A stretch of DNA of 64,000 nucleotides from assembly GCA_965371625.1 (NCBI GenBank), contig CBDUZE010000002.1, positions 92,960 to 156,959 of the forward strand. Direction: 5' to 3'. The notes under the pieces were generated by a model. It saw only the letters and a program-made list of their open reading frames with translations, searched no databases and was not told where the DNA came from. This document shows, in pieces, positions 4,642-25,128 of the stretch. Position 1 is the first letter of the stretch. Every line of letters begins with the position of its first letter. Source of the stretch: an uncultured Alphaproteobacteria bacterium. GTDB taxonomy: Bacteria > Pseudomonadota > Alphaproteobacteria > CBDUZE01. Both the position numbers and the translations under genes were made by a program.

Positions 4642-4650
4642 CTAACCATT

Positions 4651-4742: not shown

Positions 4743-4922
4743 TTAAGGCGTGGGCATTGGGATATTTGGACCGAGTTCATCTGCAATCGGGTTGCCCACT
4801 GCCTCCTGAATCGTGGAGTAGTCTCCGGGCACGTTAATCGTCGCCGCCAGCGTCGGCGATGATGTAAGAGCTACGCCGATCGCCGCCGCGGCGCCCATCA
4901 GTGTCGCTAGTTTTCTTGTCTT
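4743..4922 (-). pseudogene. N-terminal fragment (signal peptide + ~25 aa) of a beta-helix protein paralog
   Basis: ...KLATLMGAAAAIGVALTSSPTLAATINVPGDYSTIQEAVGN... parallels the N-terminus of the 5625..6725 protein (MKRLAVLAGATLLAG...NYATIQGAVNG). It stops after ~60 codons, and the same conserved upstream element precedes it. Confidence 0.45.
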
Positions 4923-4924
4923 GA

Positions 4925-5128
4925 ACCTCCCTATTGTTCGGGTTTCGAAAACCGGGTTGCGCGAAGACCGCCCGCGCCCCGGGCGTAGTCTCGGGCGGCG
5001 ACAGCGGTGTACCGAGCCCTCGATGGCGGGAACAAACCCCGCCTCGGACTCGCGCCAGACCGCGCCGCGCCGCCCAGTTGTCAATACTCAAGCACGATCG
5101 ACGGGATGGTGCATCCCCCGAATGGAGT
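4925..5128. repeat. Copy A of a duplicated ~210-bp non-coding leader/divergent-promoter element (about 75–80% identical to copy B at 6726..6960)
   Basis: Alignable by eye to 6726–6960, including the shared block gtctcgggcggcga...aaaccccgcctcgg...cccccgaatggagta. Confidence 0.6.
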
Positions 5129-5404
5129 ATGGTGGTAGCTTTTCGCGCATGTGGTTCGAGCAGCGCAGCGGTCGACGGTCGGCTCGACGCGGCGGCGCGC
5201 TCGCGCATCCTCCGCCGCGTGATCGCTTTGGAAGCGGAGCCGCGGCCGCCAGGGGCAGGCAAACCGGCCGGCGCGGAAGGGTTCTGGCGCATCCGCGCAG
5301 GCGACTATCGGATCGTGTACACGATCGACGACGCGAACCGCCTCGTCCTCGTGGTCGCCGTCGGCCACCGCCGCGAGGTCTATCGGAGGAAGCCGGGAAG
5401 TTGA
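5129..5404 (+). CDS. RelE/ParE-family type II toxin-like protein with no obvious cognate antitoxin gene
   Basis: C-terminal RelE/ParE signature ...RILRRVIALEAEPRPPGAGKPAGAEGFWRIRAGDYRIVYTIDDANRLVLVVAVGHRREVY. The N-terminus is degenerate, and no RelB/ParD-like small ORF lies upstream. Confidence 0.55.
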   Translation: MVVAFRACGSSSAAVDGRLDAAARSRILRRVIALEAEPRPPGAGKPAGAEGFWRIRAGDYRIVYTIDDANRLVLVVAVGHRREVYRRKPGS

Positions 5405-5624
5405 GCGATCCGCACGTCAGGCGCTCCGCGATTCCGGGTCAACTCGATCGGAGCCCGGCCCCCGGCGCGGCGGAGAAGACAAACGGGGCCAGAGAGAACT
5501 CAGGAGAACTGTCTCTGTATCTCTGGCCCCGTCACTCGCTACTTCCGGAAATAAGTACACTGTCCTAAGTAAACTGTCCCCGGAATTTCTGAATTTCCCC
5601 GCAATTCCATTCCGAAAGTGACCC

Positions 5625-6725
5625 TCAGTCGATCACGTTGGCGTGCACCTTAGCATTGTCATCGGAGCCCGTAATAATATCATCCGTGCAGTTTATCGTG
5701 TTGTGGATCACTTTATTGTTGTTGGCGCCCGAACCAATCCACACGCCTTCATTATCTCCACCATTGCAGGAAAGCGTGTTGTTGGTTACCTTGTTGTTCT
5801 CGGCAGTGGCAGGATTTGGCCCCCAGTAACCCGCCCGAGCGTCGATGGCTACAGCCGTTGAACTACCCGTCACCGTGTTCCGGATGACTCTGTTGCCATT
5901 GGAACCGGGTGCAGCGTAGCCATAGGCTGCAATGAACACGCCGACCTCGTTATCAGTGAGAGTGTTTCTTTGAATCATCACATCGTCAGTCTCGAAAACG
6001 AGGATGCCGGTGGCGCTCCAATCGACACCTGGAAACCAGTTACCGGTAACTTCGTTTCTCTTAACGCCCGCCGTCGCACCACGGCTCACCTGGATGCCGT
6101 TTTGGGCAACAAACGGAGTCGGGCCAGCTCCCTCGGTCACGTTCTCCGAGATGGTTGCGTCCGAACCGGCATTATCGACGACGATACCGCCCTTGTAATA
6201 GCCGACAATCTCGTTGTTGGTAATCGTTGCCGTGCCCACGGCGCTCCAGAAGGCGCGCCCAACCCAGATCCCCTGGACAAACCCGTCGATCTCGTTGCCG
6301 TCAACCGTGGCATCACCGTTGCCACTCACATAGATGCCTATCGCGCCGCCCGTGGTCGGCCCGGTGATTGTGAAATCCCGAATGCTGACCCCGGTGGCTC
6401 CGGCGACATGGACGACAGCTTCGGGCGAGGCCATCGATAGGGGAGCGTCGATAATCGCCAACAGGGGCGTGACCGACATCAAGCTGAGATCATCGGTTGC
6501 CACTGTAACCTGTTCTGTGTACGTGCCGGGACAGACCAAAATGGTGTCGTCAGGGCTCGCGCCATTGACCGCGCCCTGGATAGTGGCGTAGTTGGGAGCG
6601 ACGTCACACGGGGCATCCTCTAGGCTTCCGTCGTTCACAAACCACGTTGTTTGGGCCAGCGCCTGCCCCCCTCCAAGAATTCCAGCGAGCAGGGTAGCGC
6701 CTGCCAATACTGCAAGTCTCTTCAT
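5625..6725 (-). CDS. Secreted right-handed parallel beta-helix repeat protein (pectate-lyase-like fold)
   Basis: Start chosen at the internal ATG, which has AGGAGG 6 nt upstream (caggaggtaactATG). It has signal peptide MKRLAVLAGATLLAGILGGGQALAQ and multiple N-rich beta-helix repeats (NNKVTNNTLSCNGG.., NNKVIHNTINC). The coding region is low-GC. Confidence 0.7.
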   Translation of the reverse strand: MKRLAVLAGATLLAGILGGGQALAQTTWFVNDGSLEDAPCDVAPNYATIQGAVNGASPDDTILVCPGTYTEQVTVATDDLSLMSVTPLLAIIDAPLSMASPEAVVHVAGATGVSIRDFTITGPTTGGAIGIYVSGNGDATVDGNEIDGFVQGIWVGRAFWSAVGTATITNNEIVGYYKGGIVVDNAGSDATISENVTEGAGPTPFVAQNGIQVSRGATAGVKRNEVTGNWFPGVDWSATGILVFETDDVMIQRNTLTDNEVGVFIAAYGYAAPGSNGNRVIRNTVTGSSTAVAIDARAGYWGPNPATAENNKVTNNTLSCNGGDNEGVWIGSGANNNKVIHNTINCTDDIITGSDDNAKVHANVID

Positions 6726-6960
6726 AGTTACCTCCTGTCTGTTTTGCGCCCCAGAGCCCCTTGCAGGGCGTCGTGCGCCCACGTCCCCGGGGGATTGTCT
6801 CGGGCGGCGAAGACGGCCTCGTGGGCCCCTCGACGGCGGGTGCAAACCCCGCCTCGGGCTCGCGCGAGACCGCGATGCGCCGCCGAGTTGGAGCGACTCA
6901 AGCACGCGCAATGGGTTGGCGCGTCCCCCGAATGGAGTACGGCGGTATGAATTCGCGTAG
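6726..6960. repeat. Copy B of the duplicated leader element, with a degenerate relE-like start region following at ~6950–7040
   Basis: Alignable to 4925–5128. Downstream sequence (atgaattcgcgtaggaggttcgag...) parallels the relE-like 5' end of copy A but is disrupted. Confidence 0.55.
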
Positions 6961-7043
6961 GAGGTTCGAGGGCCGGGGCGGTCAGGGGTGGGCAATCAGC
7001 GGTCAGCTCGATCGCGGCCGAGGGCTGAGAACGCGCGCCCTCC

Positions 7044-11397: not shown

Positions 11398-12897
11398 ATG
11401 AGCGCTTCAGACGCTTATGACGTGGTCGTGGTCGGGGCCGGTAACGCCGGCCTCTGCGCGGCGCTCGCGGCGCGCCAGCGGGGCGCCCGCGTGCTGGTGC
11501 TGGAATGCGCGCCCGAGGAGCAACGCGGCGGCAACAGCCGCTTCACCGCCGGCGCCATGCGCGTCGCCTACGAGGGCATCGAGGATCTCCTCGAGTTGAT
11601 GCCGGACCTGAGCGAGGCCGAGCGTGAGAGGACCGACTTCGGCTCCTACGGCGAGCAACGTTTCTTCGACGACATCGCCCGACTGAGCGAATTTCGCGCC
11701 GACCCCGACCTGGCCGACATCCTGGTGCGCCACAGCCTCGAGACGCTTGGCTGGATGCGGCAGAACGGGGTCCGCTTCGCGCCCATGTACGGCCGCCAGG
11801 CCTTCGAGGTCGACGGCAGGTTCACCTTCTGGGGGGGGCTCGCGGTGGAGGTCTCGGGCGGCGGTCCGGGGCTCGTGGAAGCCCTGTTCGAGGCGGCGCG
11901 AGCGCAAGGCGTCGAGCTCTGGTACCGGGCCCGGGCGCTCGGCCTGGTGCCGCGAGACGGTGGCATCGGCGGGGTCACGGTGCGCGTCGGCGAGGCCACC
12001 ACCGAGATCGCCGCCGGGGCGGTGGTGCTCGCCGCCGGCGGCTTCGAGGCCAATGCCGAATGGCGCACCCGCTACCTGGGACCGGGCTGGGACCTGGCCA
12101 AGGTCCGGGGTTCGCGCTTCAACATGGGGGACGGCATCCGCATGGCGCTCGAGGTCGGCGCCCTTCCTTGCGGCAACTGGTCGGGCTGTCACGCCGTGGC
12201 CTGGGACCGCAACGCGCCCGAGTTCGGCGACCTCGCGGTCGGCGACGGATTCCAAAAGCACAGCTATCCCTTCGGCGTCATGGTCAACGCCCTGGGCCGC
12301 CGTTTCCTCGACGAGGGCGCCGATTTCCGCAACTACACCTATGCCAAGTACGGCCGCGTCATTCTCGAGCAGCCGGGTCAATTCGCGTGGCAGATCTTCG
12401 ACGCCAAGGTCCTCCACCTGTTGCGCGACGAATACCGCATTCGCCAGGTCTCGAAGGTCAAGGCCGCGAGCCTCGAAGAGCTGGCGGCCCAGCTCGAGGG
12501 CGTCGACGGCGCGGCGTTCCTGGCCGAGATCGAGAGCTTCAACGCCGCCGTCGACGACGGCCCGAGCTTCAATCCCAACCTCAAGGACGGCCGCCGCACC
12601 CGGGGCCTGGCCATCGACAAGTCCAACTGGGCCAACGCCATCGACGAGCCCCCGTTCGCGGCCTATGCCGTAACCTGCGGCATCACCTTCACCTTCGGCG
12701 GCCTCAGGATCGACACGGGCGGCGGCGTCATGGGGCGGGACGGCACCCCGATCGCCAACCTGTTCGCGGCCGGGGAGCTGGTCGGCGGCCTGTTCTACTT
12801 CAACTACCCGGGCGGCACCGGGCTCACCGCGGGCGCCGTGTTCGGCCGCCGCGCCGGCGCCGCGGCCTGCGCCGCCGCCCTGGGCGCGGGCGCGTAG
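11398..12897 (+). CDS. FAD-dependent oxidoreductase, tricarballylate dehydrogenase TcuA-like (fumarate reductase/succinate dehydrogenase flavoprotein superfamily)
   Basis: N-terminus YDVVVVGAGNAGLCAALAARQRGARVLVLECAPEEQRGGNSRFTAGAMR closely parallels TcuA. Length is 499 aa. Confidence 0.7.
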   Translation: MSASDAYDVVVVGAGNAGLCAALAARQRGARVLVLECAPEEQRGGNSRFTAGAMRVAYEGIEDLLELMPDLSEAERERTDFGSYGEQRFFDDIARLSEFRADPDLADILVRHSLETLGWMRQNGVRFAPMYGRQAFEVDGRFTFWGGLAVEVSGGGPGLVEALFEAARAQGVELWYRARALGLVPRDGGIGGVTVRVGEATTEIAAGAVVLAAGGFEANAEWRTRYLGPGWDLAKVRGSRFNMGDGIRMALEVGALPCGNWSGCHAVAWDRNAPEFGDLAVGDGFQKHSYPFGVMVNALGRRFLDEGADFRNYTYAKYGRVILEQPGQFAWQIFDAKVLHLLRDEYRIRQVSKVKAASLEELAAQLEGVDGAAFLAEIESFNAAVDDGPSFNPNLKDGRRTRGLAIDKSNWANAIDEPPFAAYAVTCGITFTFGGLRIDTGGGVMGRDGTPIANLFAAGELVGGLFYFNYPGGTGLTAGAVFGRRAGAAACAAALGAGA

Positions 12898-13119
12898 GGC
12901 CTCATTGCGAATCCGATGCCGCCGCGCCGGCGACGGGCACGAGGCGTCGGTGGTACGGGCGGCGGCGAAGTTGGGGTAAGCTTGCGGTCGATGTGGCGTT
13001 CCGGATGGCCCCAATCGACCGTCGTGGCGAGCGGCGGCGGCGAACCGGCCCAACTGGCGCTGCCTATTCCGCTCGTGACGATCCAGGGGGACCGATCACC
13101 GGCAAGAACGAGGCTGACC

Positions 13120-13401
13120 ATGTACCGTACCAGCGACGTAATAAGGCCCAAGACCAAGATTGCGGTTGAGCTCCGCAAGACCGACGGCTCCGTTCTCGAA
13201 GGTCACGTCTACGTGGCCGGATCGGAGCGCATCCTCGACGTCTTGAACAGCACCGCGCCGTTCCTCCCGATCGAGGTCAAGAGCGGCAAGGTTTTGCTCG
13301 TCAACAAGAACTCGATCAACGTCGTCGAGCCTTTCGACGAGGATTGGATGGAAGGCGAACCCATCGCCCAGACCACGTTCCAGCCCGGCGCCCGGTCATG
13401 A
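13120..13401 (+). CDS. Small hypothetical protein (93 aa)
   Basis: Internal ATG with GAGG 8 nt upstream. The upstream part of the ORF-track frame is Arg/Gly junk. Confidence 0.4.
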   Translation: MYRTSDVIRPKTKIAVELRKTDGSVLEGHVYVAGSERILDVLNSTAPFLPIEVKSGKVLLVNKNSINVVEPFDEDWMEGEPIAQTTFQPGARS

Positions 13402-13515
13402 ACGGATGACCCTTTCCGTGAGCGCGGCGCGCGCCATGCCGCGGCCCCGGTCCCGGCCCGGGCGCGCCGGGGCGCCTCGGGCCGCGCCGGCGGAGTCGGG
13501 GCACGACCGCGGACC

Positions 13516-14247
13516 ATGAGACGGCATGTTCTCCTGCTGGGAGTGCTAGCCGCGCTGGTGGTGGCGGCGCCCGAGGGACGCGGCGACGCGTACGACGAGG
13601 CCCGCGACCGGCTGCTGCGGGAGATCGAGCGCGATGCCGTCGCCACCTTGAGCTGGACCGGGCGCCGAGGCTTCACCGCGGCCACCATGCGGGCACTGCG
13701 CCAAGTGCCGCGGCACCTCTTCGTGCCGCGATTGCTCGAGTCACGCGCCTACGACAATCGGCCGCTCCCCATCGGCCACGGCCAGACCATCTCGCAGCCC
13801 TACATCGTTGCGCTGATGACCGATATCCTGGGGCTCGAGGAGGCGGCGCGGGTGCTCGAGGTGGGCACCGGCTCGGGCTATCAGGCGGCCGTGCTCGCCG
13901 CGCTCGGGGCAAAAGTCCACAGCATCGAGATCATCGAGCCCCTGGCGCTCGAGGCCAAGCGGCGCCTCGCCACACTGGGCTACGACAACGTCACCGTGCG
14001 CCAGGGCGACGGCTACTACGGCTGGGAGGAGGCGGCGCCGTTCGACGCCATCATCGTCACCGCCGCCGCGAGCCACATCCCCCCGCCGCTGGTGAAACAG
14101 CTCAAGCCCGGCGCCCGCATGGTGATCCCGGTGGGCGCCCGCTTCCTCACCCAATGGCTGGTGGTGGTGGAGAAGGACGACGCGGGCAAGGTCACCACCA
14201 GGCAGATTCTGCCCGTGAGATTCGTGCCGCTGACCGGGCAACACTGA
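13516..14247 (+). CDS. pcm: Protein-L-isoaspartate O-methyltransferase
   Basis: Motifs HGQTISQPYIVALMTD and LEVGTGSGYQAAVLA. N-terminal signal-like segment present. Confidence 0.85.
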   Translation: MRRHVLLLGVLAALVVAAPEGRGDAYDEARDRLLREIERDAVATLSWTGRRGFTAATMRALRQVPRHLFVPRLLESRAYDNRPLPIGHGQTISQPYIVALMTDILGLEEAARVLEVGTGSGYQAAVLAALGAKVHSIEIIEPLALEAKRRLATLGYDNVTVRQGDGYYGWEEAAPFDAIIVTAAASHIPPPLVKQLKPGARMVIPVGARFLTQWLVVVEKDDAGKVTTRQILPVRFVPLTGQH

Positions 14248-14250
14248 GCG

Positions 14251-16689
14251 ATGCCGCTGGTGCTGGCGATCTCGGTGCTCTCGGCCGCGGTCGTCGGTTA
14301 CGAAATCCTCTTAATGCGGTTGTTCTCGGTCATCCAGTGGCACCACTTCGCCTACATGATCATCAGCTTGGCGCTCTTGGGCTACGGCGCCAGCGGTACG
14401 CTGCTCGCCTTCGTCCGCGACTGGGCGAGCGCGCGCTTCACCACCGTCTTCGCCGCCGGCGCGATACTCTTCGGCATCTCGGCGGTGGCCGCCTTCGCGC
14501 TGGCCCAGCGCACCCCCTTCAACCCCCTCGAGGTGGTCTGGGACCCACGCCAGTTCCTCTATCTCCTGGTCCTTTACGTGCTGTTGGCGGTGCCCTTCCT
14601 CTGTGCCGCGTTCCCCATCGGCCTCAGCTACTACCGTTATGGCGAGCGCATCGGCGCGCTTTATCGTGCCGACCTGGTGGGCGCCGGCAGCGGCGCCGGG
14701 ATCGTCATCCTGATGCTCTTCGTGCTGAGCCCCGAGCGCGCGCTCGAGCTCCTGGGGGCGCTGGGCTTCGTCGCCGGTGCCCTGGTCAGTCTCGAACGGC
14801 GGCGCGGCCTGCCCCTGGCACTGGCACTGATCGCGGCCGGCGTCCTCTCGCCTTACCTGTGGCCCGATTGGGCCGTGGCCTTTCGCCTTTCGCCCTACAA
14901 GGCACTGAGCCAGGCCTTGCAGGTGCCGGGAGCGCGGGTGGTGGCGGAGCGCTCGAGCCCGTTGGGCGTGCTCACCGTGGTGAGGAGCCCGATCATCCCG
15001 TTTCGCCACGCCCCCGGGCTGAGCCTGATGAACCAAGCGGAGGTGCCGCCTCAGATCGCCGTTTTCAGCGACGGCGAATCACTGACCGCGATCACGCGCA
15101 GCGAGGGCGGGCGCGAGGATGAAGCGCGCGAGTCGCTCGGCTATCTCGACTTCCAGACCGCGGCGCTGCCCTATCACCTGCTCGAGCACCCCCGGGTGCT
15201 GGTGCTCGGAGCGGGGGCCGGCGCCGACGTTCTGCTCGCCCGCTTTCACCATGCCGACACGATCGACGCCGTCGAGCTCAATCCCCAGATCGTGGCCCTG
15301 GTACGCGACGATTTCGCGGACTTCGCCGGGCACCTCTACCAATCGCCCGGGCTCCGCGTGACGGTGGCCGAGGCGCGCCGCTTCGTCACCGCGAGCCGCG
15401 AGGCCTACGACCTCATCCAGATCTCGCTGCTCGACTCCTTCGCCGCCTCGGTGGCCGGGCTCTATGCGCTCAACGAGAGCACGCTCTACACCGTCGAGGC
15501 CTTCGAGAGCTATCTCCGGCGGCTCGCGCCCGGCGGCTTCCTGGCCATCACCCGCTGGCTCAAGGTGCCGCCCCGCGACAGCCTCAAGCTGGTGGCGACC
15601 GCGGGCGCGGCGCTGGCGCGCCAGGGCGTGGCCGAGCCGGCGCGGCAGATCGCGCTCATCCGCGGCTGGAACACCTTCACGCTGCTGGTCAAGAACGGCG
15701 CCTTGAGCGACGCCGAGGTGGCGGCGGTGCGGGCGTTCGCCGCCGCCCGCGCCTTCGACCTCGCCCATCTGCCGGGGCTCTCGGAGCACGAGGCCAACCG
15801 CTACAACCTGCTCGCCGAGCCCTACTTCCACGCCGGCGCCCGGGCCTTGCTGGGGGCCGACGCCCGGGCCTTCGTGCGCGACTACAAGTTCGACGTCGCG
15901 CCGGCCACCGACGACCGCCCCTATTTCTTCCACTTCTTCAAGTGGCGGCTGCTGCCCGAACTGGTGGCCCTGGGCCCGGCCGCAGCCCCGCCGCTCCTGG
16001 AGCTGGGATATCTCGTGCTGGTGGTGACACTGGTGCAGGCGGCGCTCGTCGGCGCGGTCCTGATCGTACTGCCGCTCGGCGTCCTGAGGCGCGCGGGCTC
16101 GGGGCCCGGGGCCGGGCCGCGCCTGGCACAGGTGTTTCTCTACTTCGGCGCCCTGGGCCTCGCCTTCCTGTTCATCGAGATTGCCTTCATCCAGCGTTTC
16201 GTTCTGTTCCTGGGCCACCCGCTCTACGCCGTGGCCGTGGTGCTCGCCGCCTTCCTGGTGTTCGCCGGAGTCGGCAGCGGTCTCTCGCCCCGCCTCAGGC
16301 GGAGCGCCGGCGCGCGAGCCACCCCGCTCGCGGTGGCGGCCATCGTTCTCCTCGCCCTGCTCTACATCGTGCTGCTGCCTCCGCTCTTCGATTGGCTTGG
16401 GCCGCTCCCCATCGCCGTCCGGATCCCGGCCTCGCTGGCGCTGATCGCCCCGCTCGCCCTGGCCATGGGCCTGCCCTTTCCGCTCGGCCTCAGGCGCTTG
16501 GCGGAGGCGGCCCCTCATCTCGTCCCCTGGGCCTGGGCCGTCAACGGCTGCGCCTCGGTGCTCGCCGCCGTCCTCGCCACCCTGCTCGCCATCCAGTTCG
16601 GCTTCACCGTGGTGGTGGTGGTGGCGCTGGCGCTCTATCTGCTGGCGGCCGCCGTCTCCACCGGTCGCCGCTTCGCCCCGGCCGGCTAG
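14251..16689 (+). CDS. Large polytopic membrane protein with an embedded spermidine-synthase-like methyltransferase-fold domain
   Basis: Many TM segments flank a soluble domain with VLVLGAGAGADV...DAVELNPQIV...DLIQISLLDSF (spermine/spermidine synthase-like). Confidence 0.6.
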   Translation: MPLVLAISVLSAAVVGYEILLMRLFSVIQWHHFAYMIISLALLGYGASGTLLAFVRDWASARFTTVFAAGAILFGISAVAAFALAQRTPFNPLEVVWDPRQFLYLLVLYVLLAVPFLCAAFPIGLSYYRYGERIGALYRADLVGAGSGAGIVILMLFVLSPERALELLGALGFVAGALVSLERRRGLPLALALIAAGVLSPYLWPDWAVAFRLSPYKALSQALQVPGARVVAERSSPLGVLTVVRSPIIPFRHAPGLSLMNQAEVPPQIAVFSDGESLTAITRSEGGREDEARESLGYLDFQTAALPYHLLEHPRVLVLGAGAGADVLLARFHHADTIDAVELNPQIVALVRDDFADFAGHLYQSPGLRVTVAEARRFVTASREAYDLIQISLLDSFAASVAGLYALNESTLYTVEAFESYLRRLAPGGFLAITRWLKVPPRDSLKLVATAGAALARQGVAEPARQIALIRGWNTFTLLVKNGALSDAEVAAVRAFAAARAFDLAHLPGLSEHEANRYNLLAEPYFHAGARALLGADARAFVRDYKFDVAPATDDRPYFFHFFKWRLLPELVALGPAAAPPLLELGYLVLVVTLVQAALVGAVLIVLPLGVLRRAGSGPGAGPRLAQVFLYFGALGLAFLFIEIAFIQRFVLFLGHPLYAVAVVLAAFLVFAGVGSGLSPRLRRSAGARATPLAVAAIVLLALLYIVLLPPLFDWLGPLPIAVRIPASLALIAPLALAMGLPFPLGLRRLAEAAPHLVPWAWAVNGCASVLAAVLATLLAIQFGFTVVVVVALALYLLAAAVSTGRRFAPAG

Positions 16690-16838
16690 AGCAATTCCAG
16701 GTCACCTGGAATCGCTCTTGATTCTTTTCGCTCACGGCAGCGGACCCAAGGGTCCGCACCTGCGCGGGCGCGCCGGAGGACCGGCGGGCCGCAGTCGCGG
16801 CCTGAGAGCGGTTCCAATTGACCTTGAACCGCTCTAGC
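16686..16838. repeat. ~150-bp hairpin-rich intergenic repeat element, copy 1 (RIME/REP/MITE-like): two terminal ~14-bp stem-loops flanking a GC-rich core that contains a gcggaccc-aa-gggtccgc hairpin
   Basis: Read directly from the sequence. A near-identical inverted copy lies at 51017–51172. Confidence 0.75.
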
Positions 16839-16978
16839 CCGGCGGCAGGCTTCCTGCCTGCGGGTGCCTTGGTAGATCGCATCGTGGTCGGGTAAGCTCG
16901 ATTTCCCGGTCCGCCGGGGGCCGGCGGCGCTGTGCTATCGCCGCTTCGGGCCCACACCGTCGCCTCGAGGAGAGCCCG

Positions 16979-17452
16979 ATGATCCGCCTTGCCGTGCTGC
17001 TCTTGCTATTGCCAAGCGCCGCCTTGGCCGACGCCGTCGGCTCGGCGCGGGTGATCGACGGCGAGACCATCGAGGTAGCGGGCCAGCGCTTCCGCCTCTA
17101 CGGCATCGACGCGCCCGAGCCCGGGCAGTCCTGCGAACTTCGCGCCAAGACCATCCGTTGCGGCTACATCGCCAAGACCGCGCTCATGGACTTGACCGCG
17201 GGGGCCACGGTGTCGTGCGCGCCCCGCGCAGAGGCCGCGGGCGGAATCGCCGTGGCGACCTGCCTCGCCGATGGCTTCGATCTCTCGCGCAACATGGTGC
17301 ACACCGGTTGGGCGCTCGCCGACCGCGGCGTCACCACGCGATACGTCGCCACCGAGGACAAGGCCCGAGCAGCCAAGCGCGGCCTGTGGCGGGGCCGCTT
17401 CGTGCCGCCCTGGGAGTGGCGGCGCGGCAAGCGGCTGGCGACGGAGCAGTGA
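16979..17452 (+). CDS. Secreted thermonuclease (staphylococcal nuclease-like) family protein
   Basis: Signal peptide, then VIDGETIEVAGQRFRLYGIDAPE...WRGRFVPPWEWRR, which is SNase-like. Confidence 0.75.
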   Translation: MIRLAVLLLLLPSAALADAVGSARVIDGETIEVAGQRFRLYGIDAPEPGQSCELRAKTIRCGYIAKTALMDLTAGATVSCAPRAEAAGGIAVATCLADGFDLSRNMVHTGWALADRGVTTRYVATEDKARAAKRGLWRGRFVPPWEWRRGKRLATEQ

Positions 17453-17506
17453 GGGCGGCTCGAACCCCTTGCTCGCCGCGCCCGCGAAGGGCCGGATCGG
17501 GTGAGT

Positions 17507-18958
17507 TCAGCGCGCCTCGCTCGCGGCCCTGGCCCGGGCCATGATCTCGTCCGGGTCCAGCACCCGGCCGCCCTTGACCACGCGATGAATGCGTCGCGTG
17601 TTGCGAATGTCGGCCAGGGGATCGGCATCGAGGATCACCATGTCCGCGAGCTTGCCCGGCGCGAGGGTGCCGAGGTCGCCGGCGCGGCCCATGACCCGGG
17701 ACCCGCCCCGGGTCGCGGCCACCAGCACCGCCGCGGGCGTGAGGCCGGCCACCACCATCAGCTCGAGCTCGCGGTGCAGCGCCGGGCCGTGCAGGGTGCC
17801 GATGTTGCCGGCGTCGGAGCCGGCGGCGACGGTGATCCCGCGCGCCCACACCCGCGCCAGGTTGGCGCCGACCACCGGGTCGAGCGGCGGGTCGAGCGGC
17901 GGGTCGAGCGGCGGCGGCGAGCGCGGGCGCAGCCACGACGGCAGCAGACGGCGAGACAGGGTCTCGAGGTCGCGAAAGCTGGCGATCGCCTCGGGATCGC
18001 CCAGACGGCGTTCGATGTCGCTCAAACGGAGGTCGAGGCCAAGCACCTCGCGATAGCCCTCCTTGACCACGATGGTGGTGGTGTAGACCACGTCGCGCGC
18101 CTTCATCAGCGCCAGCAGCCGGTCGTCGACGGGGCCGTCGTCGATGCTGTGCGCGAGCACGTCGACGCCGGCCTCGATCATCGCGCGGGCGACCCGACGC
18201 TGGGTGGCATGCGCCACCACGCGCACGCCGCCGGCGTGGCTTTCCGCCACCGCGGCCCGCACCCAGGCGATCTCCGGCCCGAGCTCCCGAGCCGGAAAGA
18301 CGAACCAGATCTTGATCAGGTCGGGGTCATGGACGAGCTGGCGTCGGACCTCGGCGCGGGCCTCATCGGGGGTGGCGATCCTGACGATCGGCGGGTCGGC
18401 GGCCGCCAAAGCGGGCGGCGCGTAGGTCGCCAGCAGCGGCCCCGCCACCGCCACCCGCGGCGCCAGCGGCGTGCGGGCGGCACGAGCCCTCACCTCGAAG
18501 TTCCACAGCGGTCCGCCGACGTCGACCACCGCGGTGACCCCGCTGGCGAGATAGCGGGCCAGGGTGAGCTCGATCCGCGCCTTGACCCCGGCCACCTCTT
18601 CGGCATAGGGCCGGTGAGCGCGCAGGTCGATGATATCGGGACGGGTGTAGGCGCCGCCCGACTGAAAGAAATGGATGTGGGCGTCGACGAGACCGGGAAT
18701 GATCCACTTGCCGCCCACCTCGACGATGCGGGCCCGGGCCGGAAGCTCGAGCGCCCGGCCGCGGGCCACGGCGACGATGCGCTCGCCCTCCACCAGCACC
18801 GTGGCCTCGGGGAGCGGCGCGGCGCCACTGCCGTCGATCACCGTGGCGCCGACGAAGGCGATAACCTCGCCCTCGGCGCGGGCCCCGGAAACGGCCAGCA
18901 GGATCAGGGCGGCCGCCGCGAGCAGCGGCCGCCCATGCCCGATCCGGTTACGCTGCAT
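17507..18958 (-). CDS. Secreted amidohydrolase-family metal-dependent hydrolase
   Basis: Signal peptide. Motifs IPGLVDAHIHF and HAT...D. It contains an in-frame (PPLD)x3 repeat. Confidence 0.7.
   Translation of the reverse strand: MQRNRIGHGRPLLAAAALILLAVSGARAEGEVIAFVGATVIDGSGAAPLPEATVLVEGERIVAVARGRALELPARARIVEVGGKWIIPGLVDAHIHFFQSGGAYTRPDIIDLRAHRPYAEEVAGVKARIELTLARYLASGVTAVVDVGGPLWNFEVRARAARTPLAPRVAVAGPLLATYAPPALAAADPPIVRIATPDEARAEVRRQLVHDPDLIKIWFVFPARELGPEIAWVRAAVAESHAGGVRVVAHATQRRVARAMIEAGVDVLAHSIDDGPVDDRLLALMKARDVVYTTTIVVKEGYREVLGLDLRLSDIERRLGDPEAIASFRDLETLSRRLLPSWLRPRSPPPLDPPLDPPLDPVVGANLARVWARGITVAAGSDAGNIGTLHGPALHRELELMVVAGLTPAAVLVAATRGGSRVMGRAGDLGTLAPGKLADMVILDADPLADIRNTRRIHRVVKGGRVLDPDEIMARARAASEAR
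17878..17913. repeat. 12-bp tandem repeat (gggtcgagcggc) x3 inside the amidohydrolase CDS, encoding PPLDPPLDPPLD
   Basis: Read directly from the sequence. Confidence 0.7.
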
Positions 18959-19066: not shown

Positions 19067-19894
19067 TTAGGTGATCTTCTCGCGCAGCGCGACGAGCAAT
19101 CCCTCGATGTTGCCGCCGGCGCTCTGGATGATCGAGGCGAACTCGGAGCGTTGGGTAATCGCCATGCTCACGCCGCTGACGACCACGTCGATGATGCGGT
19201 ATCCGGTGGCCGACCCGCTCACCAGCCAATTCACTTCCACCGGCGGCATGCCGGGGCGGGGGCGGTGGATGAGGCTCTTGACGATGACGATGTTGCGCCG
19301 GCTGGGCAGGGCGCCGGTAATTGCCAAGCTCTCGCCCGAGTACTTGGCGATCCGGCTGATGTAGACCGAGACGATCAAGGCCTCGAACAGGCGCCGATAC
19401 TCCACCTGCTGCGCCGCCGTCGCCCGTCGCCAATGGCGGCCCAACACGATGCGGCTGATGGTATCGACATCGAATCCCTGCACCAGGACGGCGCGCAGGA
19501 CCAGGACCCGTTGCTCGGGCGTCAGCGAACGATCGCTCATCGTGGCGATGGTGCGGTCGCTCAAGGCCTTGACGAAGCGCACGGCGCCTTGGATCGATAC
19601 CTTCCCAGCGCTCGGCGCGATGCTGCCGAGTCGCCAGGCCTCGGCGTCCTCGGCGATGTAGGCCGAGGGCTGCCTGGCGCCGGCGTCGACCGCCGCGATC
19701 CTGGCCGCGCTCTCATCCGCTAGCGAGCTCGCGCAGCCCGCCAGCAGCACCGCCATTGAGGCCAGCACGTGGAAGCCAAGCCGTGACCCTGCCCGACCGC
19801 GACCGCCTGTCGGCTGACTCGTCCGATCGCGGCGCGACGCCCGATCTAACCCGAGATTTTGGGCATTCTTACCCCAACGCAGAATCATCTTCAT
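19067..19894 (-). CDS. MlaC/Ttg2D-family periplasmic lipid-binding protein (start uncertain)
   Basis: C-terminal region ...YSGESLAITGALPSRRNIVIVKSLIHRPRPGMPPVEVNWLVSGSATGYRIIDVVVSGVSMAITQRSEF is typical of the MlaC/toluene-tolerance family. The N-terminal boundary is unclear (MKMILRW... vs MAVLLAGC...). Confidence 0.55.
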   Translation of the reverse strand: MKMILRWGKNAQNLGLDRASRRDRTSQPTGGRGRAGSRLGFHVLASMAVLLAGCASSLADESAARIAAVDAGARQPSAYIAEDAEAWRLGSIAPSAGKVSIQGAVRFVKALSDRTIATMSDRSLTPEQRVLVLRAVLVQGFDVDTISRIVLGRHWRRATAAQQVEYRRLFEALIVSVYISRIAKYSGESLAITGALPSRRNIVIVKSLIHRPRPGMPPVEVNWLVSGSATGYRIIDVVVSGVSMAITQRSEFASIIQSAGGNIEGLLVALREKIT

Positions 19895-20008
19895 CGTTGA
19901 ACACCCCAGCCGTCCAAGAATGACAGCATTAACCGGCACGCCTTAAGGACGCGTTAATCGCCCCGCTCGCCGAGGCGCCGGCCGATCGCCGGGCGACTGG
20001 CCCGAGCG

Positions 20009-20383
20009 CTATTCGTCGCAGGGAAAGGCTTCGCTCAACGCCGCCGTCACGGCGGTCGCCGCCGCTTGGTCCAGGGTCTCGGAATGACGTCGTGCCCAGT
20101 CGGCGAAGAGAAGGCGCATCTCTTCGTTGTTCAAGGTCCCGCCCGGGAGGCAGAAGCGGGCGCGCGCGTCGTCGGTCTTCGCCACCAAGGCATGGGTGTC
20201 GCCGACCCCATTGAGGAAGCCGTAACACAGCACCAGCGCGAGCGCGGTGGGCATATCGCCCTCGGCGTCCGCCGGGTGATGGTCGCAATACCGCGCCAGG
20301 TCCGCGGCGTCGTGAATTTCCTGCGCCGAGGCCGCCGGAATGAGTCCGGCGAGTACCGCGGCTATGCCTGCAAGTCGCTTCAT
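20009..20383 (-). CDS. Small secreted hypothetical protein (Cys-containing, ~124 aa)
   Basis: Internal Met start gives signal peptide MKRLAGIAAVLAGLIPAASAQE. Four Cys are present. Confidence 0.45.
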   Translation of the reverse strand: MKRLAGIAAVLAGLIPAASAQEIHDAADLARYCDHHPADAEGDMPTALALVLCYGFLNGVGDTHALVAKTDDARARFCLPGGTLNNEEMRLLFADWARRHSETLDQAAATAVTAALSEAFPCDE

Positions 20384-20514
20384 GGGAGCTGCCCCAGACG
20401 GCGCAAGAATCAGTGGATATCGTAGAGCGCCCGGGAGGCGCGGGCAATCCAACAGCGCGCGCCGACGGCGATGGCTGCCAATCCCGCGGATCGCGGAGAT
20501 CGGTCATCATCCGA

Positions 20515-20703
20515 TCAGGCCTGGACGTAGTCGCGCTCGGCCGGATCGTCGTGCCGCACCCACTTGTAGAGCAAGCGACGGGGATCGCGGACGCGCCCGC
20601 ACTTCACGCACTCGACGACGCCGTAACCGCGCAGGGCGAAAATCGTGTGACCGCAACTACATTCGACGTCGAAACCCGTCGGGTTCTCTTCGGTGATCTT
20701 CAT
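20515..20703 (-). CDS. Small zinc-ribbon protein (62 aa)
   Basis: CSCGH...CVKCGR four-cysteine motif. A compact ORF. Confidence 0.4.
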   Translation of the reverse strand: MKITEENPTGFDVECSCGHTIFALRGYGVVECVKCGRVRDPRRLLYKWVRHDDPAERDYVQA

Positions 20704-20992
20704 GACAGGCCTCCAGGCTTTGAGCGGCGGGCCGTAAACTGCCGCATGGCGTCTTCTACGACCTCAAAGATGGCACGAGAAGGGCCGGGAGCCAGTGACC
20801 AACGTCACAGGGGGAGACGTTCTTGGCGGTGCGGTGTGACAAGGTCGGCACGAAAACGGAAAATTAACCAACCACACGTATCGTCGCAGCCACTTCGGTC
20901 GGGGTTGACCTTTAGATGGTCGTGGCCAAGCCGGCGGCGACTCGCCGGGCGCTGAGGCCGGCGGTTGGGGCCCAACGAGACAGAGTGCCGGA

Positions 20993-22135
20993 ATGGAGAC
21001 AAGCGGCGTCCAATACCTGGAGAGCCTGGCCAAGCTGGCGGAGGAGCGATCGCCCGAAAAACGTCGGGTCCTGCTCGAGCGCATCTCGGATCTGTTCATC
21101 GCCTCGGGGCAGGAGGTGAGCGACGACGAATCGGCGCTCATGGGCGACATTCTCAATCGGCTGGTCCACGACGTGGAGATGACGGTGAGACGCACCCTCG
21201 CCGAACGTCTGGCCGACCTCGACAAAGCGCCGCGCGAATTGATCACCACCCTGGCCAATGACGAAATCGATGTCGCCGCGCCAATCCTGTTGAGTAGCGG
21301 CGTGCTCCAGGACAGCGACCTCATCGAGATCGTCAGACACCGCACCAAGGAGCACTTGATGGTGGTGGCCCGGCGCGACGCCATCAACGAGCCGGTGAGC
21401 GACGCCTTGGTGGACAACGGTGACGAGGACGTCATCGAGACCCTGCTCTATAACCATAACGCGATGATCTCGCGCCGCGCGATCAGCTATCTCGCCACCG
21501 AGTCGCAGCGGGTGGATCGCTTCCAGAAGCCGTTGCTGACCCGCCCCGACCTGCCGGCCAACCTCGCTTACGAGATGTTCGATTGGGTGTCCGCCGCCTT
21601 ACGCCAGCACATCCTCAGCAGCTACGACATCGACGAGACGCTGGTCGACGGTGTGCTCGAGGAAACGAAAAGGACGGCGTTGGACGATGACGACCTCGGC
21701 GCCGCGAGCAACGAGGCGATGAAACTGGTCCAGCGGCTCGAAAAGGCCGGGATGCTGACGGAAAGCTTTCTTGTGCAGACGCTCCGGGACGGACGGATCG
21801 GCGTCTTCATATCCGCGCTGGCCACCAAGAGCGGCATCGACCTCCAGACCGCCCGGCGCATCTTCTTCGACCGCGGCGAGGAGGGGCTGGCCATTATCTG
21901 CAAGGCCAGCGGCTTCGATCGCTCGACCTTCGCCTCGCTCACCCTGCTGCGGCGGAAAAGCGCCGAGCAAAGCGGACCCATGGCGCCCACGGTGCTGGAG
22001 AAGTTGATGAGCATGTACGACACCATCACCGCGCGCAACGCGCGGCGCGTTCTGCGCTTCTGGAACATCCGACAGCACGAGATCGGGACCCCGCCGGCCC
22101 AGGGTAGCGGCGCGGCGGTTGCGACAAGCATGTAA
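20993..22135 (+). CDS. DUF2336-family protein (HEAT-like repeats), copy 1
   Basis: 380-aa protein identical to the copy at 22577..23719. Repeat-rich helical motifs (ILLSSGVLQDSDLIEIVRHRTKEHLMVVARRD...) recall the alphaproteobacterial DUF2336 family. Confidence 0.6.
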   Translation: METSGVQYLESLAKLAEERSPEKRRVLLERISDLFIASGQEVSDDESALMGDILNRLVHDVEMTVRRTLAERLADLDKAPRELITTLANDEIDVAAPILLSSGVLQDSDLIEIVRHRTKEHLMVVARRDAINEPVSDALVDNGDEDVIETLLYNHNAMISRRAISYLATESQRVDRFQKPLLTRPDLPANLAYEMFDWVSAALRQHILSSYDIDETLVDGVLEETKRTALDDDDLGAASNEAMKLVQRLEKAGMLTESFLVQTLRDGRIGVFISALATKSGIDLQTARRIFFDRGEEGLAIICKASGFDRSTFASLTLLRRKSAEQSGPMAPTVLEKLMSMYDTITARNARRVLRFWNIRQHEIGTPPAQGSGAAVATSM

Positions 22136-22199
22136 CGGCGGATCGATCCCGGGTGCCGGCGGGCCCGGAGACACCGGCATAGCGGCGGAGAGCGAGATC

Positions 22200-22384
22200 G
22201 TGCGCAGGTGTATTTCAGCTTCGGATACCAACGGGACCTTCATCGGGTCAACAAGATCCGCCAGCTGCCGTAAATCATTGCCGGCGCGGCGGCGGGATTT
22301 TAGAGCGCCAAGATTTGGCAGGAGGCAAAGCGCAACGGCGATGGGGCGGTCCGTGGCCTCATCAACGACGCCCTCAGTGGCACC
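22200..22384 (+). pseudogene. Degenerate 5' fragment of the TIR-like gene (1-bp deletion, in-frame TAA)
   Basis: Alignable to 23784–23968 but carries cagg-tgta (1-bp deletion), ctgccgTAAatc and ~10% substitutions. Confidence 0.55.
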
Positions 22385-23968
22385 AACGTCACAGGGGGAG
22401 ACGTTCTTGGCGGTGCGGTGTGACGAGGTCGGCACGAAAACGGAAAATTAACCAACCACACGTATCGTCGCAGCCACTTCGGTCGGGGTTGACCTTTAGA
22501 TGGTCGTGGCCAAGCCGGCGGCGACTCGCCGGGCGCTGAGGCCGGCGGTTGGGGCCCAACGAGACAGAGTGCCGGAATGGAGACAAGCGGCGTCCAATAC
22601 CTGGAGAGCCTGGCCAAGCTGGCGGAGGAGCGATCGCCCGAAAAACGTCGGGTCCTGCTCGAGCGCATCTCGGATCTGTTCATCGCCTCGGGGCAGGAGG
22701 TGAGCGACGACGAATCGGCGCTCATGGGCGACATTCTCAATCGGCTGGTCCACGACGTGGAGATGACGGTGAGACGCACCCTCGCCGAACGTCTGGCCGA
22801 CCTCGACAAAGCGCCGCGCGAATTGATCACCACCCTGGCCAATGACGAAATCGATGTCGCCGCGCCAATCCTGTTGAGTAGCGGCGTGCTCCAGGACAGC
22901 GACCTCATCGAGATCGTCAGACACCGCACCAAGGAGCACTTGATGGTGGTGGCCCGGCGCGACGCCATCAACGAGCCGGTGAGCGACGCCTTGGTGGACA
23001 ACGGTGACGAGGACGTCATCGAGACCCTGCTCTATAACCATAACGCGATGATCTCGCGCCGCGCGATCAGCTATCTCGCCACCGAGTCGCAGCGGGTGGA
23101 TCGCTTCCAGAAGCCGTTGCTGACCCGCCCCGACCTGCCGGCCAACCTCGCTTACGAGATGTTCGATTGGGTGTCCGCCGCCTTACGCCAGCACATCCTC
23201 AGCAGCTACGACATCGACGAGACGCTGGTCGACGGTGTGCTCGAGGAAACGAAAAGGACGGCGTTGGACGATGACGACCTCGGCGCCGCGAGCAACGAGG
23301 CGATGAAACTGGTCCAGCGGCTCGAAAAGGCCGGGATGCTGACGGAAAGCTTTCTTGTGCAGACGCTCCGGGACGGACGGATCGGCGTCTTCATATCCGC
23401 GCTGGCCACCAAGAGCGGCATCGACCTCCAGACCGCCCGGCGCATCTTCTTCGACCGCGGCGAGGAGGGGCTGGCCATTATCTGCAAGGCCAGCGGCTTC
23501 GATCGCTCGACCTTCGCCTCGCTCACCCTGCTGCGGCGGAAAAGCGCCGAGCAAAGCGGACCCATGGCGCCCACGGTGCTGGAGAAGTTGATGAGCATGT
23601 ACGACACCATCACCGCGCGCAACGCGCGGCGCGTTCTGCGCTTCTGGAACATCCGACAGCACGAGATCGGGACCCCGCCGGCCCAGGGTAGCGGCGCGGC
23701 GGTTGCGACAAGCATGTAACGGCGGATCGATCCCGGGTGCCGGCGGCACCGGAGACAGCGGCAAAGCTTCGGAGAGTGAGATCGTGCGCAGGGTGTACTT
23801 CAGCTTCGACTACCGATGGGACCTTCATCGGGTCAACAAGATCCGCCAGCTGCCGCAAATCATTGCCGGCGCGGCGGCGGGATTTCAGAGCGCCAAGATT
23901 TGGCAGGAGGCAAAGCGCAACGGCGACGGAGCGGTCCATGGCCTCATCAACGACGCCCTCAGTGGCAC
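22385..23968 (+). repeat. Tandem direct repeat unit 2 (1,584 bp)
   Basis: See unit 1. Confidence 0.85.
22577..23719 (+). CDS. DUF2336-family protein, copy 2
   Basis: Identical translation to copy 1. Confidence 0.6.
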   Translation: METSGVQYLESLAKLAEERSPEKRRVLLERISDLFIASGQEVSDDESALMGDILNRLVHDVEMTVRRTLAERLADLDKAPRELITTLANDEIDVAAPILLSSGVLQDSDLIEIVRHRTKEHLMVVARRDAINEPVSDALVDNGDEDVIETLLYNHNAMISRRAISYLATESQRVDRFQKPLLTRPDLPANLAYEMFDWVSAALRQHILSSYDIDETLVDGVLEETKRTALDDDDLGAASNEAMKLVQRLEKAGMLTESFLVQTLRDGRIGVFISALATKSGIDLQTARRIFFDRGEEGLAIICKASGFDRSTFASLTLLRRKSAEQSGPMAPTVLEKLMSMYDTITARNARRVLRFWNIRQHEIGTPPAQGSGAAVATSM

Positions 23969-24278
23969 CAGCGTCACCGTGGTCTGCGTCGGCCACACGA
24001 CCGCCCATCGCAAGTACATCGTTTACGAGCTTGAACGGTCGTTCGAGCGCGGTAACGGACTGGTGGGGATCACCATCAACCACCTGAGCGATGGACAGGG
24101 GAAGTCCGACCCCGAGGCCTCGATTCCCCCGCTGCTCACGATCTCGGAAGCAGGCATCTACAAGTACAGCAACAAGCGGGATCTGGTGAATTGGATCGAG
24201 CAGGCGGCGGAAGCCGCCGCGCGAGAGCGCCAGCACGATTATCAGCATCAGCTCGTGATCCAGGGCAGCCCGGCCTAA
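23784..24278 (+). CDS. TIR-like domain protein (DUF1863/ThsB-like), GTG start
   Basis: N-terminal RRVYFSFDYRWDLHRVNKIRQ... matches the '(K/R)VF(F/I)SFxY' opening of TIR-like DUF1863 domains. GGAGAG 7 nt upstream of the GTG. Length ~165 aa. Confidence 0.5.
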   Translation: MRRVYFSFDYRWDLHRVNKIRQLPQIIAGAAAGFQSAKIWQEAKRNGDGAVHGLINDALSGTSVTVVCVGHTTAHRKYIVYELERSFERGNGLVGITINHLSDGQGKSDPEASIPPLLTISEAGIYKYSNKRDLVNWIEQAAEAAARERQHDYQHQLVIQGSPA

Positions 24279-24305: not shown

Positions 24306-24995
24306 TCAGGGCGTGAAAGAAACCTCGGTCGGCAGCTCCACCCCCTCGAGCGCGACCACGCGGGCCGGCGCGCCATCCAAGCCCTCAAGTTTGAGCGGCA
24401 GGGCGAAGATCACGCAGCGCGGGCGCGAGATCGCCGCCAGATTGCGCACGTACTCGACGTTGCAGATGTCGTGGCCCAGGAGGCGGTGGTGAACGCTGCA
24501 ATCCTCGGCGCGAAAGCCCGGCTGGCGGACCACGTACTCCTCGGAGAAGTCATAGACCACGGCCTTGACGCCGCGCTCGACCAGCCAGTCGGCGCCCTCC
24601 ACCGTGAGGTAGGGGCCCTCGCGCCAGAACCTCTCGGTACCCCAGCAGGCATCGCTCCAGCCGGTGCGCAGGACGGCGATATCACCTCGTTTGGTGTGAC
24701 GGCCGCGGTCCTCGAGCGTGTCGCCGGCGATGCCGGCCTCGGGGCCGTGATCGCTGAGCTCAATCACCGCCGCCGGCCCCACCAGCTTGGCCAGCGGCAC
24801 CGCGTCGATCGCGGCGCCGCCGGCGATGAAGTGGCTGGGCGCGTCCACGTGGGTGCCGTAATGGCAGAACATGCTGAAGGTCGAGCCCGCCCAGCCCGCC
24901 TCGTCGAGGCGATACGGGGTTTCGAACGCCACCTCCAGGCCCATGCGGCCGTCGCCGTGGCGAATGGCTATCGAAAGGTCGATGAGGTCGGCCAT
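24306..24995 (-). CDS. Cyclase-family protein (kynurenine formamidase-like)
   Basis: HYGTHVDAPSHF motif and length (229 aa) are typical of the PF04199 cyclase family. Confidence 0.75.
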   Translation of the reverse strand: MADLIDLSIAIRHGDGRMGLEVAFETPYRLDEAGWAGSTFSMFCHYGTHVDAPSHFIAGGAAIDAVPLAKLVGPAAVIELSDHGPEAGIAGDTLEDRGRHTKRGDIAVLRTGWSDACWGTERFWREGPYLTVEGADWLVERGVKAVVYDFSEEYVVRQPGFRAEDCSVHHRLLGHDICNVEYVRNLAAISRPRCVIFALPLKLEGLDGAPARVVALEGVELPTEVSFTP

Positions 24996-25054: not shown

Positions 25055-25128
25055 TGGCTGGGGCGGCAGGAATCGAACCTGCGATCGCGGGACCAAAACC
25101 CGCTGCCTTACCACTTGGCTACGCCCCA
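25055..25128 (-). tRNA. tRNA-Gln (anticodon TTG)
   Basis: Minus-strand sequence TGGGGCGTAGCCAAGTGGTAAGGCAGCGGGTTTTGGTCCCGCGATCGCAGGTTCGATTCCTGCCGCCCCAGCCA folds as a cloverleaf. Acceptor UGGGGCG/CGCCCCA, anticodon stem GCGGG/CCCGC with loop UUUUGGU giving anticodon UUG, T-arm GGTTCGATTCC, encoded CCA. Confidence 0.9.

Follow-up and report, generated by a model that had tools for sequence, protein, structure and literature searches.

A predicted orphan ThsB-family TIR gene kept beside DUF2336 within one alphaproteobacterial clade

Introduction

Does a gene of the DUF2336 family, followed by a gene for a ThsB-type TIR protein, make up an anti-phage system of its own, or are the two simply long-standing neighbours? 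The question is raised by a locus in an uncultured Alphaproteobacteria bacterium (assembly GCA_965371625.1, contig CBDUZE010000002.1, positions 92,960 to 156,959), whose 64,000 nucleotides (nt) we call here the window; positions are those of the window unless a locus is named. A first-pass annotation had taken the interval 20993-24278 as a possible defence-like module of two genes in an accessory or defence island. Comparison of the locus with its relatives leads us to another reading. The TIR gene is, as far as sequence can tell, a new and orphan member of the ThsB family, and the DUF2336-TIR order is, judged by its distribution, a case of vertical synteny in one clade and not a mobile two-gene system. 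With no more than moderate confidence, we favour a ThsB-like TIR that is probably active and whose gene was fixed behind a DUF2336 gene already resident there, with no dedicated link to it.

A ThsB-family TIR gene under purifying selection

The intact TIR gene (23784-24278, forward strand) starts with GTG and encodes 164 amino acids (aa), beginning with VRRVYFSFDYRWDLHRVN. This GTG has a GGAGAG motif 8-13 nt before it, and is preferred over an upstream TTG at 23703 because the homologues conserve the N-terminus MRRVYFSF. The first-pass assignment of the gene to the TIR-like, DUF1863 (ThsB-type) proteins holds: the protein matches PF08937 ThsB_TIR (formerly DUF1863) with E 1.4e-15 and 58 bits (cut-off 21.2), the PADLOC model ThsB1 (PDLC00431) with E 2.8e-38 over residues 1-146, and the PADLOC model PDC-M50B (PDLC04688) with E 1.5e-32. 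A profile built from 42 TIR homologues finds the Bacillus cereus ThsB (BcThsB) structures 6LHY/9B7D at E 8e-39 and EcThsB (8WCF) at E 5e-26. The structural check proposed in the same annotation also came out in its favour, as the AlphaFold2 (AF2) model, with a predicted local distance difference test score (pLDDT) of 92.5, has a ThsB-like fold, of the flavodoxin-like TIR type, whose best Foldseek matches are ThsB structures, EcThsB 8WCF (E 5e-10, template modelling score 0.73) and BcThsB 9B7D/6LHY. In the alignment of the profile to 6LHY, glutamate E82 falls on the catalytic E85 of BcThsB, and at least 90% of the homologues have this residue (alignments of 42 and of 24 sequences).

The protein thus resembles the ThsB of type I Thoeris (B. 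cereus MSX-D12) in family, fold, catalytic glutamate, single-domain build and similar size, with 37% pairwise identity over the TIR core. Unlike BcThsB, it has no large insertion or C-terminal part, and carries instead a C-terminal helix extension specific to its clade. In ThsB, E85 is needed for the production of a cyclic ADP-ribose isomer, and ThsB expressed alone neither depletes nicotinamide adenine dinucleotide (NAD+) nor kills the cell (PMC10022894).

The TIR gene is alive and under purifying selection. Against the orthologues in four related loci (L002, L001, L095 and L097), the ratio of nonsynonymous to synonymous substitution rates (dN/dS) is 0.32-0.37, while the synonymous divergence (dS) rises from 0.16 to about 1.0. 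Purifying selection and the retained catalytic glutamate together suggest that the protein is most likely still a ThsB-like enzyme. As a side observation, the comparison with the closest relative (L002, 298-783) gives a dS of 0.16 for the TIR gene, compared with 0.068 for the cyclase gene beside it and 0.037 for the DUF2336 3' end; this small sample could reflect allele exchange or a faster turnover of the TIR gene.

Partners of related TIR genes and their absence from the window

A genome scan returned 80 loci with homologues 37-54% identical to it, from Archaea, Bacteroidota, Chloroflexota, Acidobacteriota and many Proteobacteria, and partner classes were obtained by clustering and annotating all open reading frames (ORFs) that neighbour the TIR homologues. 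At least one of three recurrent partners is found at 74 of these 80 loci: ThsA, with SIR2 and STALD SLOG domains (PADLOC ThsA1, E 1.3e-155), at 28 loci; a SLOG-cluster-3 protein together with a 410-aa TIR_2 protein at 24; and a protein of about 145 aa with two transmembrane segments, matching PDC-M50A, at 23. The family also occurs on 77 plasmids, annotated Bacillus thsB genes included. A scan with the alignment of close-clade TIRs added 12 metagenomic loci, which are distant and Thoeris- or PDC-M50-like, or too short, and in scans of viral contigs the TIR had no relative and DUF2336 a single marginal fragment. The proposed module finds no echo in these data: at none of the 80 genomic loci does DUF2336 lie within 6 kb of the TIR homologue, none of the 12 metagenomic loci has it either, and no recurrent pairing appears outside one narrow clade.

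The profiles of the three partner classes (ThsA, SLOG plus TIR_2, and PDC-M50A) have no match at E<=1 in the 64-kb window, where a PADLOC scan of 42 window proteins likewise found no Thoeris effector. In Thoeris systems of whatever type, the TIR gene shares an operon with an effector gene, such as one for ThsA (SIR2-SLOG), Macro, SLOG+TIR, DUF2270 or SLATT proteins. It is this lack of any partner-class match in the window that leads us to regard the TIR gene as an orphan. In contrast to type I Thoeris, no ThsA or other recognised effector is encoded next to it or within the 64 kb, and its inheritance is vertical, in conserved synteny, not sporadic or mobile. A second likeness is to PDC-M50, a PADLOC candidate system made of M50A, with its two transmembrane segments, and M50B, the TIR protein that the window TIR matches. 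Among the six genomic homologues closest to the window TIR, five (52-54% identity; L003-L005, L007 and L008) come immediately after a PDC-M50A gene, whereas the window has no M50A match and the gene upstream is DUF2336.

PDC-M50 itself may be a divergent type V Thoeris, a system that pairs a TIR protein with the DUF2270 effector ThsF (2025 preprint). This possible relation comes from sub-threshold DUF2270 matches of the two-transmembrane partner (E 6.8e-4 and 0.056), present at 23 of the loci L003-L082 (for example L077 5547-5990 and L082 5545-5979). A systematic survey of TIR partners predicted about 29 types of Thoeris effector, very diverse and with domains of unknown function among them; DUF2336 is not included, and standalone TIRs were explicitly set aside (10.64898/2025.12.03.692087). 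In the papers searched we found none linking DUF2336 with TIR, nor any treating PDC-M50.

One clade, one arrangement

The TIR homologues with at least 54% identity to the window protein form one clade, with proteins of about 165 aa that share the C-terminal helix extension. The first-pass annotation was right that the TIR gene follows the DUF2336 gene directly and in the same orientation, with a gap of 64 nt in which no terminator-like site was found. This order recurs at six loci of the clade, namely the window, L001, L002, L095, L097 and L098, where the TIR proteins are identical to that of the window at 89% of positions in L002, about 69-70% in L001, 61% in L095 and 54% in L097 and L098; comparison of the DUF2336 and TIR hit tables suggests several further pairs. 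The DUF2336 proteins of paired loci are 61-92% identical to the one in the window, and the next homologues reach at most 50%. Since the pairing is confined to DUF2336 proteins above this drop, we conclude that it arose once.

What surrounds the pair tells the same story. The upstream side carries the genes for an MlaC-family protein, a Rap1a-family protein and a 62-aa zinc-ribbon ORF in L001, the MlaC gene in L095 and the Rap1a gene in L097, so that an MlaC/Rap1a block is kept at all informative paired loci and variation is seen in the downstream flank only. Between the window and L001, nine genes are co-linear with 70-97% identity, the TIR protein being the most divergent of them (70% versus 73-97%). 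An accessory or defence island, as had been proposed, is therefore not what we find, given flanks that are syntenic in a relative with proteins 70-97% identical and a PADLOC scan that detects no other defence gene. The gap between the two genes varies from about 61 to 279 nt across paired loci, and a search with the concatenated proteins as query found no DUF2336-TIR fusion, all matches being 353-412 aa long and containing PF10098 only. Two TIR genes nested in the clade have no DUF2336 neighbour, one lying after a DUF3775 gene (L096) and the other after leuD-leuB (L103), and the sister-clade TIRs of L107 and L108 also stand alone. These last two (protein P0026; L107 605-1417, L108 547-1359) are ThsB-like TIRs of 270 aa with a C-terminal extension of about 110 aa, in a context of YjbQ, GGACT and LysE genes; a PilZ-like identity of the extension was considered and dropped, as it has no Pfam match even at E<=10.

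The criteria used in the discovery of defence systems include a conserved operon-like architecture, diverse genomic contexts and a spread over distant taxa (PMC8565338). As to contexts, the pair has the same upstream MlaC/Rap1a block wherever the locus is informative; as to taxa, it occurs at none of 92 other TIR loci and in none of 8 other DUF2336 contexts.

A tandem duplication that doubled DUF2336

The interval 20993-24278 is not a single DUF2336 gene with a single TIR gene, but a tandem repeat of 1584 nt, all on the forward strand. The first copy of the unit (20798-22381) comprises a promoter-like region, a DUF2336 gene (20993-22135, 380 aa), a spacer of 64 nt and the 5' ~198 nt of a TIR gene; the second (22382-23982) comprises the second DUF2336 gene (22577-23719, also 380 aa and identical in sequence to the first), which stands directly upstream of the intact TIR gene, and continues into it. 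The locus is thereby left with a single intact TIR gene and with two DUF2336 genes, both preceded by a promoter-like site of their own. At an offset of 1584 the copies show one mismatch over 20798-22162, and at an offset of 1585 they are 93% identical up to 22397. The unit ends within the TIR gene, where the junction coincides with an imperfect microhomology, CAGTG(G)CACCA(A/G)CGTCAC, that is also present upstream of DUF2336; the whole has the look of a duplication by illegitimate recombination.

The extra TIR copy truncated by this duplication, which had already been noticed in the first-pass annotation, is thus real. It is a decayed 5' fragment (22200-22397, forward strand) that ends at the junction and still matches the TIR profile with E 1e-8. 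It is marked as a pseudogene by the loss of one nucleotide after 22208, by stops in frame at two codons (Q25* and Q35*) and by several missense changes; with the deleted base restored, its translation reads VRRVYFSFGYQRDLHRVNKIRQLP*IIAGAAAGF*SAK...

The two copies have diverged very unevenly, at 1 of 1365 positions in the promoter region and DUF2336 versus 19 of about 235 (~8%) in the spacer and TIR 5' part (Fisher p = 1.4e-15). With L002 as outgroup, 12 of the 19 differences between stub and intact TIR gene can be assigned to the stub as derived changes and the other 7 to the intact copy, and since both copies carry derived changes the duplication is not brand new. The DUF2336 segment would then have been homogenised since the duplication, presumably by gene conversion confined to that part. 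The single difference left between the copies in the promoter and DUF2336 part (20841, A/G) sits in a -35-like hexamer.

The DUF2336 protein and its partners elsewhere

The DUF2336 call for the neighbouring gene is equally secure, with a match to the full PF10098 profile (positions 1-262 of 262; E 1.1e-68, 232 bits, cut-off 34.6), and its description as a helical-repeat protein is a fair one, as the AF2 model (pLDDT 77) is all-alpha and made of short helix pairs. A fold search of this model against the PDB gave no match at E<=1e-3; resemblances to armadillo, HEAT and SARM1-ARM structures are weak and non-significant (the SARM1 ARM match ranks 24th, with E 0.24). A sequence-profile search of the PDB retrieved designed repeat proteins only, all at E>1e-3, and the PADLOC scan returned nothing beyond noise for this protein. 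Against the clade orthologues, dN/dS of the gene is 0.26-0.31. Only one DUF2336 protein has been characterised, the Caulobacter crescentus protein SpbR (CC2323), a developmental factor of the cell pole that RcdA delivers as a substrate to ClpXP (10.1101/2020.06.12.148478; PMC12700997). The window protein belongs to the same Pfam family and matches the NCBIfam SpbR model NF052659 over residues 12-314 (E 3.6e-57). Its 194.2 bits are far below the equivalog cut-off of 400 bits, and we therefore treat it as a family member and not as an SpbR orthologue.

A neighbourhood analysis of DUF2336 homologues had been set beforehand as the test on which the idea of recurrent TIR partners could fail. At 25-50% identity, the homologues lie in other contexts, with TIR in none: outside the clade the partner is a kinase, PilZ plus HD, or no signalling gene. 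A PAS-HisKA-HATPase kinase gene lies directly downstream of DUF2336 genes of 44-50% identity (L099-L102 and L112-L117) and on Azospirillum chromids (L104 and L110), with a 4-20 nt overlap or 41 nt apart. These kinases are 34-39% identical to one another and come from four lineages; the coupled pairs span, for instance, L099 6001-8855, L102 6001-8564, L104 3983-6453, L110 2483-4941 and L112 3001-5722. In at least four alphaproteobacterial lineages, this DUF2336 subfamily thus appears to have a canonical partner in such a kinase, one that has not been described so far.

To this kinase-linked type the window DUF2336 is closest, with 356 bits to the kinase-linked paralogue of locus L099 (L099a) and 105 to the other (L099b). 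The likeness to the DUF2336-PAS kinase operon of Azospirillum oryzae (HUE56_RS24195/24200) extends to Mla-family genes upstream. What differs is the downstream gene, a TIR gene in the window, and searches by tblastn between and after the genes (E<=1) found no kinase or kinase remnant in the window or at the close-clade loci. In Azospirillum, the DUF2336-kinase pair comes after an Mla lipid-transport cluster, and at two Azospirillum loci DUF2336 has no signalling gene downstream. On two Bradyrhizobium plasmids the order is DUF2336-PilZ-HD (L106 3941-6465, L111 2420-4954), a distant DUF2336 gene overlapping that for the PilZ protein, which is followed by one for an HD-domain phosphohydrolase; this context hints at a cyclic di-GMP link for another DUF2336 subfamily.

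Neighbours or partners?

The history that we favour would begin with a resident chromosomal DUF2336 gene of the SpbR family, just downstream of which one alphaproteobacterial ancestor would have gained a single-domain ThsB-type TIR gene. The newcomer, with PDC-M50 or Thoeris TIRs as its nearest relatives, would have lost its effector and become fixed in place, and the later 1584-nt duplication would have doubled DUF2336 and left the decaying TIR stub. When activated, the TIR protein would most likely work as ThsB does, consuming NAD+ and releasing a product of the cyclic-ADP-ribose type. Since ThsB alone neither depletes NAD+ nor kills (PMC10022894), the maintenance of the gene would imply a responder, which could be a distal effector or possibly DUF2336 itself; we suppose an effector encoded elsewhere or of a kind that is not recognised.

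Several points weigh against this history. The two genes have stayed adjacent even where the TIR proteins have diverged deeply, to 54% identity with dS saturated, and through three changes of the flank behind them (a cyclase gene, a 305-aa gene, POR); this is more persistence than one would expect of a neutral neighbour. The TIR gene also occupies the very place in which a translationally coupled histidine kinase adjoins the most similar DUF2336 genes elsewhere, and the 64-nt gap without a terminator-like site makes co-transcription possible. Finally, an orphan without effector has no obvious selective value, given that ThsB by itself is neither toxic nor NAD+-depleting (PMC10022894), yet this one is under selection, and a distal effector is an assumption made from a view limited to 64 kb.

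Taken together, these points keep in play a functional DUF2336-TIR link of some kind, which we hold to be rather unlikely. One form that it could take is the capture of a ThsB-type TIR in the PAS-kinase slot as dedicated partner of an SpbR-like scaffold, serving either non-immune TIR nucleotide signalling or a type of Thoeris gated in trans by an ARM/HEAT-like partner; we give this a low probability. In the non-immune form, which we consider distinctly unlikely when taken by itself, the TIR would have replaced the PAS histidine kinase, and either a nucleotide signal made by it or its use as an interaction module would feed the regulation of cell polarity or of the envelope. Such a role would fit the developmental function of SpbR, the similarity of the window protein to the kinase-linked paralogue, the repeated coupling of DUF2336 genes to signalling genes (overlapping PAS-HisKA kinases; PilZ plus HD), the kinase missing without a detected remnant from the window and the close-clade loci, and the vertical inheritance of the TIR gene, which resembles that of a housekeeping gene. 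It fits less well with gaps of ~61-279 nt in place of the overlapping or tight kinase and PilZ partners, with same-clade TIRs that live without a DUF2336 neighbour, with the lack of fusions, with a tandem duplication that doubled DUF2336 and not the TIR gene, and with the fact that no ThsB-family protein has a known non-immune role.

That the pair is a new anti-phage system of Thoeris type, with DUF2336 as effector or as sensor and regulator, or, in a variant drawn by analogy with the ARM domain of SARM1, as an ARM/HEAT-like inhibitor acting in trans, seems to us very unlikely. The co-oriented order conserved at six loci of one clade, the close relation of the TIR protein to validated Thoeris sensors, the relatively fast evolution of both genes (dN/dS 0.26-0.37) and the great diversity of Thoeris effectors (10.64898/2025.12.03.692087) would suit such a system. 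They are set against two of the three usual marks of defence systems (PMC8565338), contexts and taxonomic spread, on both of which the pair is narrow; against a DUF2336 protein with no nucleotide-binding, enzymatic or membrane feature fit for an effector, no PADLOC match beyond noise and a non-significant SARM1 ARM match; against a DUF2336 family that is widespread with other partners and missing from the systematic survey of TIR partners; and against a window that is no defence island. The opposite extreme, a TIR gene without function that is left over from a decayed Thoeris or PDC-M50-type system and is in the process of being lost, appears highly improbable. It would account for the lack of a nearby effector, for the closest relatives outside the clade, which lie in PDC-M50-type and Thoeris operons, for the decay of the duplicated 5' fragment and for the TIR being the most divergent syntenic gene. 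Its reading frame, however, is intact in all lineages examined, dN/dS stays at 0.32-0.37 even at dS ~1, the clade has kept the catalytic glutamate and the core motifs, and the stub next to it illustrates how fast stops and frameshifts are gained by an unconstrained copy. A small part of our confidence goes to none of the four readings.

If the orphan reading is true, it is mostly a caution, because a strong ThsB match beside a conserved neighbour does not amount to a system; it would also mean that a TIR gene can pass stably from generation to generation as an orphan in a core-like part of the chromosome, and it raises the question of what maintains purifying selection on a ThsB with no effector over genus- to family-level divergence. 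Should a link to DUF2336 turn out to be true instead, it would provide the first functional handle on this family beyond SpbR, and the first example of a ThsB-type TIR that is connected with a helical-repeat protein or with signalling outside immunity.

Flanking genes and the wider window

Upstream of the duplicated unit, three genes lie on the reverse strand. The 62-aa zinc-ribbon ORF (20515-20703), divergent from DUF2336 and outside the pair, is 97% identical in L001 and absent from L095 and L097, and scans with Pfam, PADLOC and NCBIfam gave it no family match. It is followed by the gene for the Rap1a-family periplasmic protein (20009-20452; PF18602, E 1.2e-15), found upstream of DUF2336 in L001 and L097, and by the MlaC-family gene (19067-19939; PF05494, E 3.5e-37), found there in L001 and L095.

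On the other side, a putative cyclase or arylformamidase-like gene (24306-24995, reverse strand; PF04199, E 4.2e-28) is convergent with the TIR gene; it is conserved in L001 and L002 only, other genes taking its place in L095 and L097. A tRNA-Gln (UUG) gene, called by both ARAGORN and Rfam, follows on the same strand at 25055-25128; L001 and L002 have it in the corresponding place, and L095 and L097 lack it. The tRNA-Gln mentioned in the first-pass annotation is thus there, although the cyclase-family gene separates it from the TIR gene. Its use as the integration site of an island is ruled out by this conserved intervening gene, by the same layout in L001 and L002, and by the presence of the pair without the tRNA in L095 and L097.

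The PADLOC scan of the 42 other proteins of the 64-kb window detected no further defence gene, only partial methyltransferase-type and weak CARF matches. We did not accept its mad2, mad3 and CARF hits as systems, since mad2 corresponds to partial matches of methyltransferase domains, the CARF match covers about 50 residues and mad3 was not traced to a protein. The mad2 hits come from the last two proteins of a conserved block of four genes (11398-16689), which match in the methyltransferase-like region only. The block encodes a FAD-binding protein, an ORF in the DUF6812 position, a PCMT-type methyltransferase and an 812-aa protein; for the first three, the Pfam assignments are those of the co-linear genes of L001. 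The block is probably no defence system.

Some gene flux is seen about 5 kb upstream of the pair (16690-18958, versus L001 3568-4869). Here L001 carries, between the genes for the 812-aa protein and an SNase, a ParE toxin and HTH pair that the window does not have, whereas the window has a 483-aa ORF (17507-18958, reverse strand) with no counterpart in L001 and no PADLOC match, which we take, from reading it by eye, to be an amidohydrolase. Stretches of markedly lower G+C content at 3001-7000 (0.56-0.63) and 60001-63000 (0.46-0.55), versus about 0.68 elsewhere, could be foreign DNA. Downstream of the pair, the region from 25243 to 59402 is occupied by a large cluster for the biosynthesis of glycans and nonulosonic acids, with genes for Glycos_transf_4 proteins, a carbamoyltransferase, NeuB, cytidylyltransferases, a DegT aminotransferase, sulfotransferases and methyltransferases.

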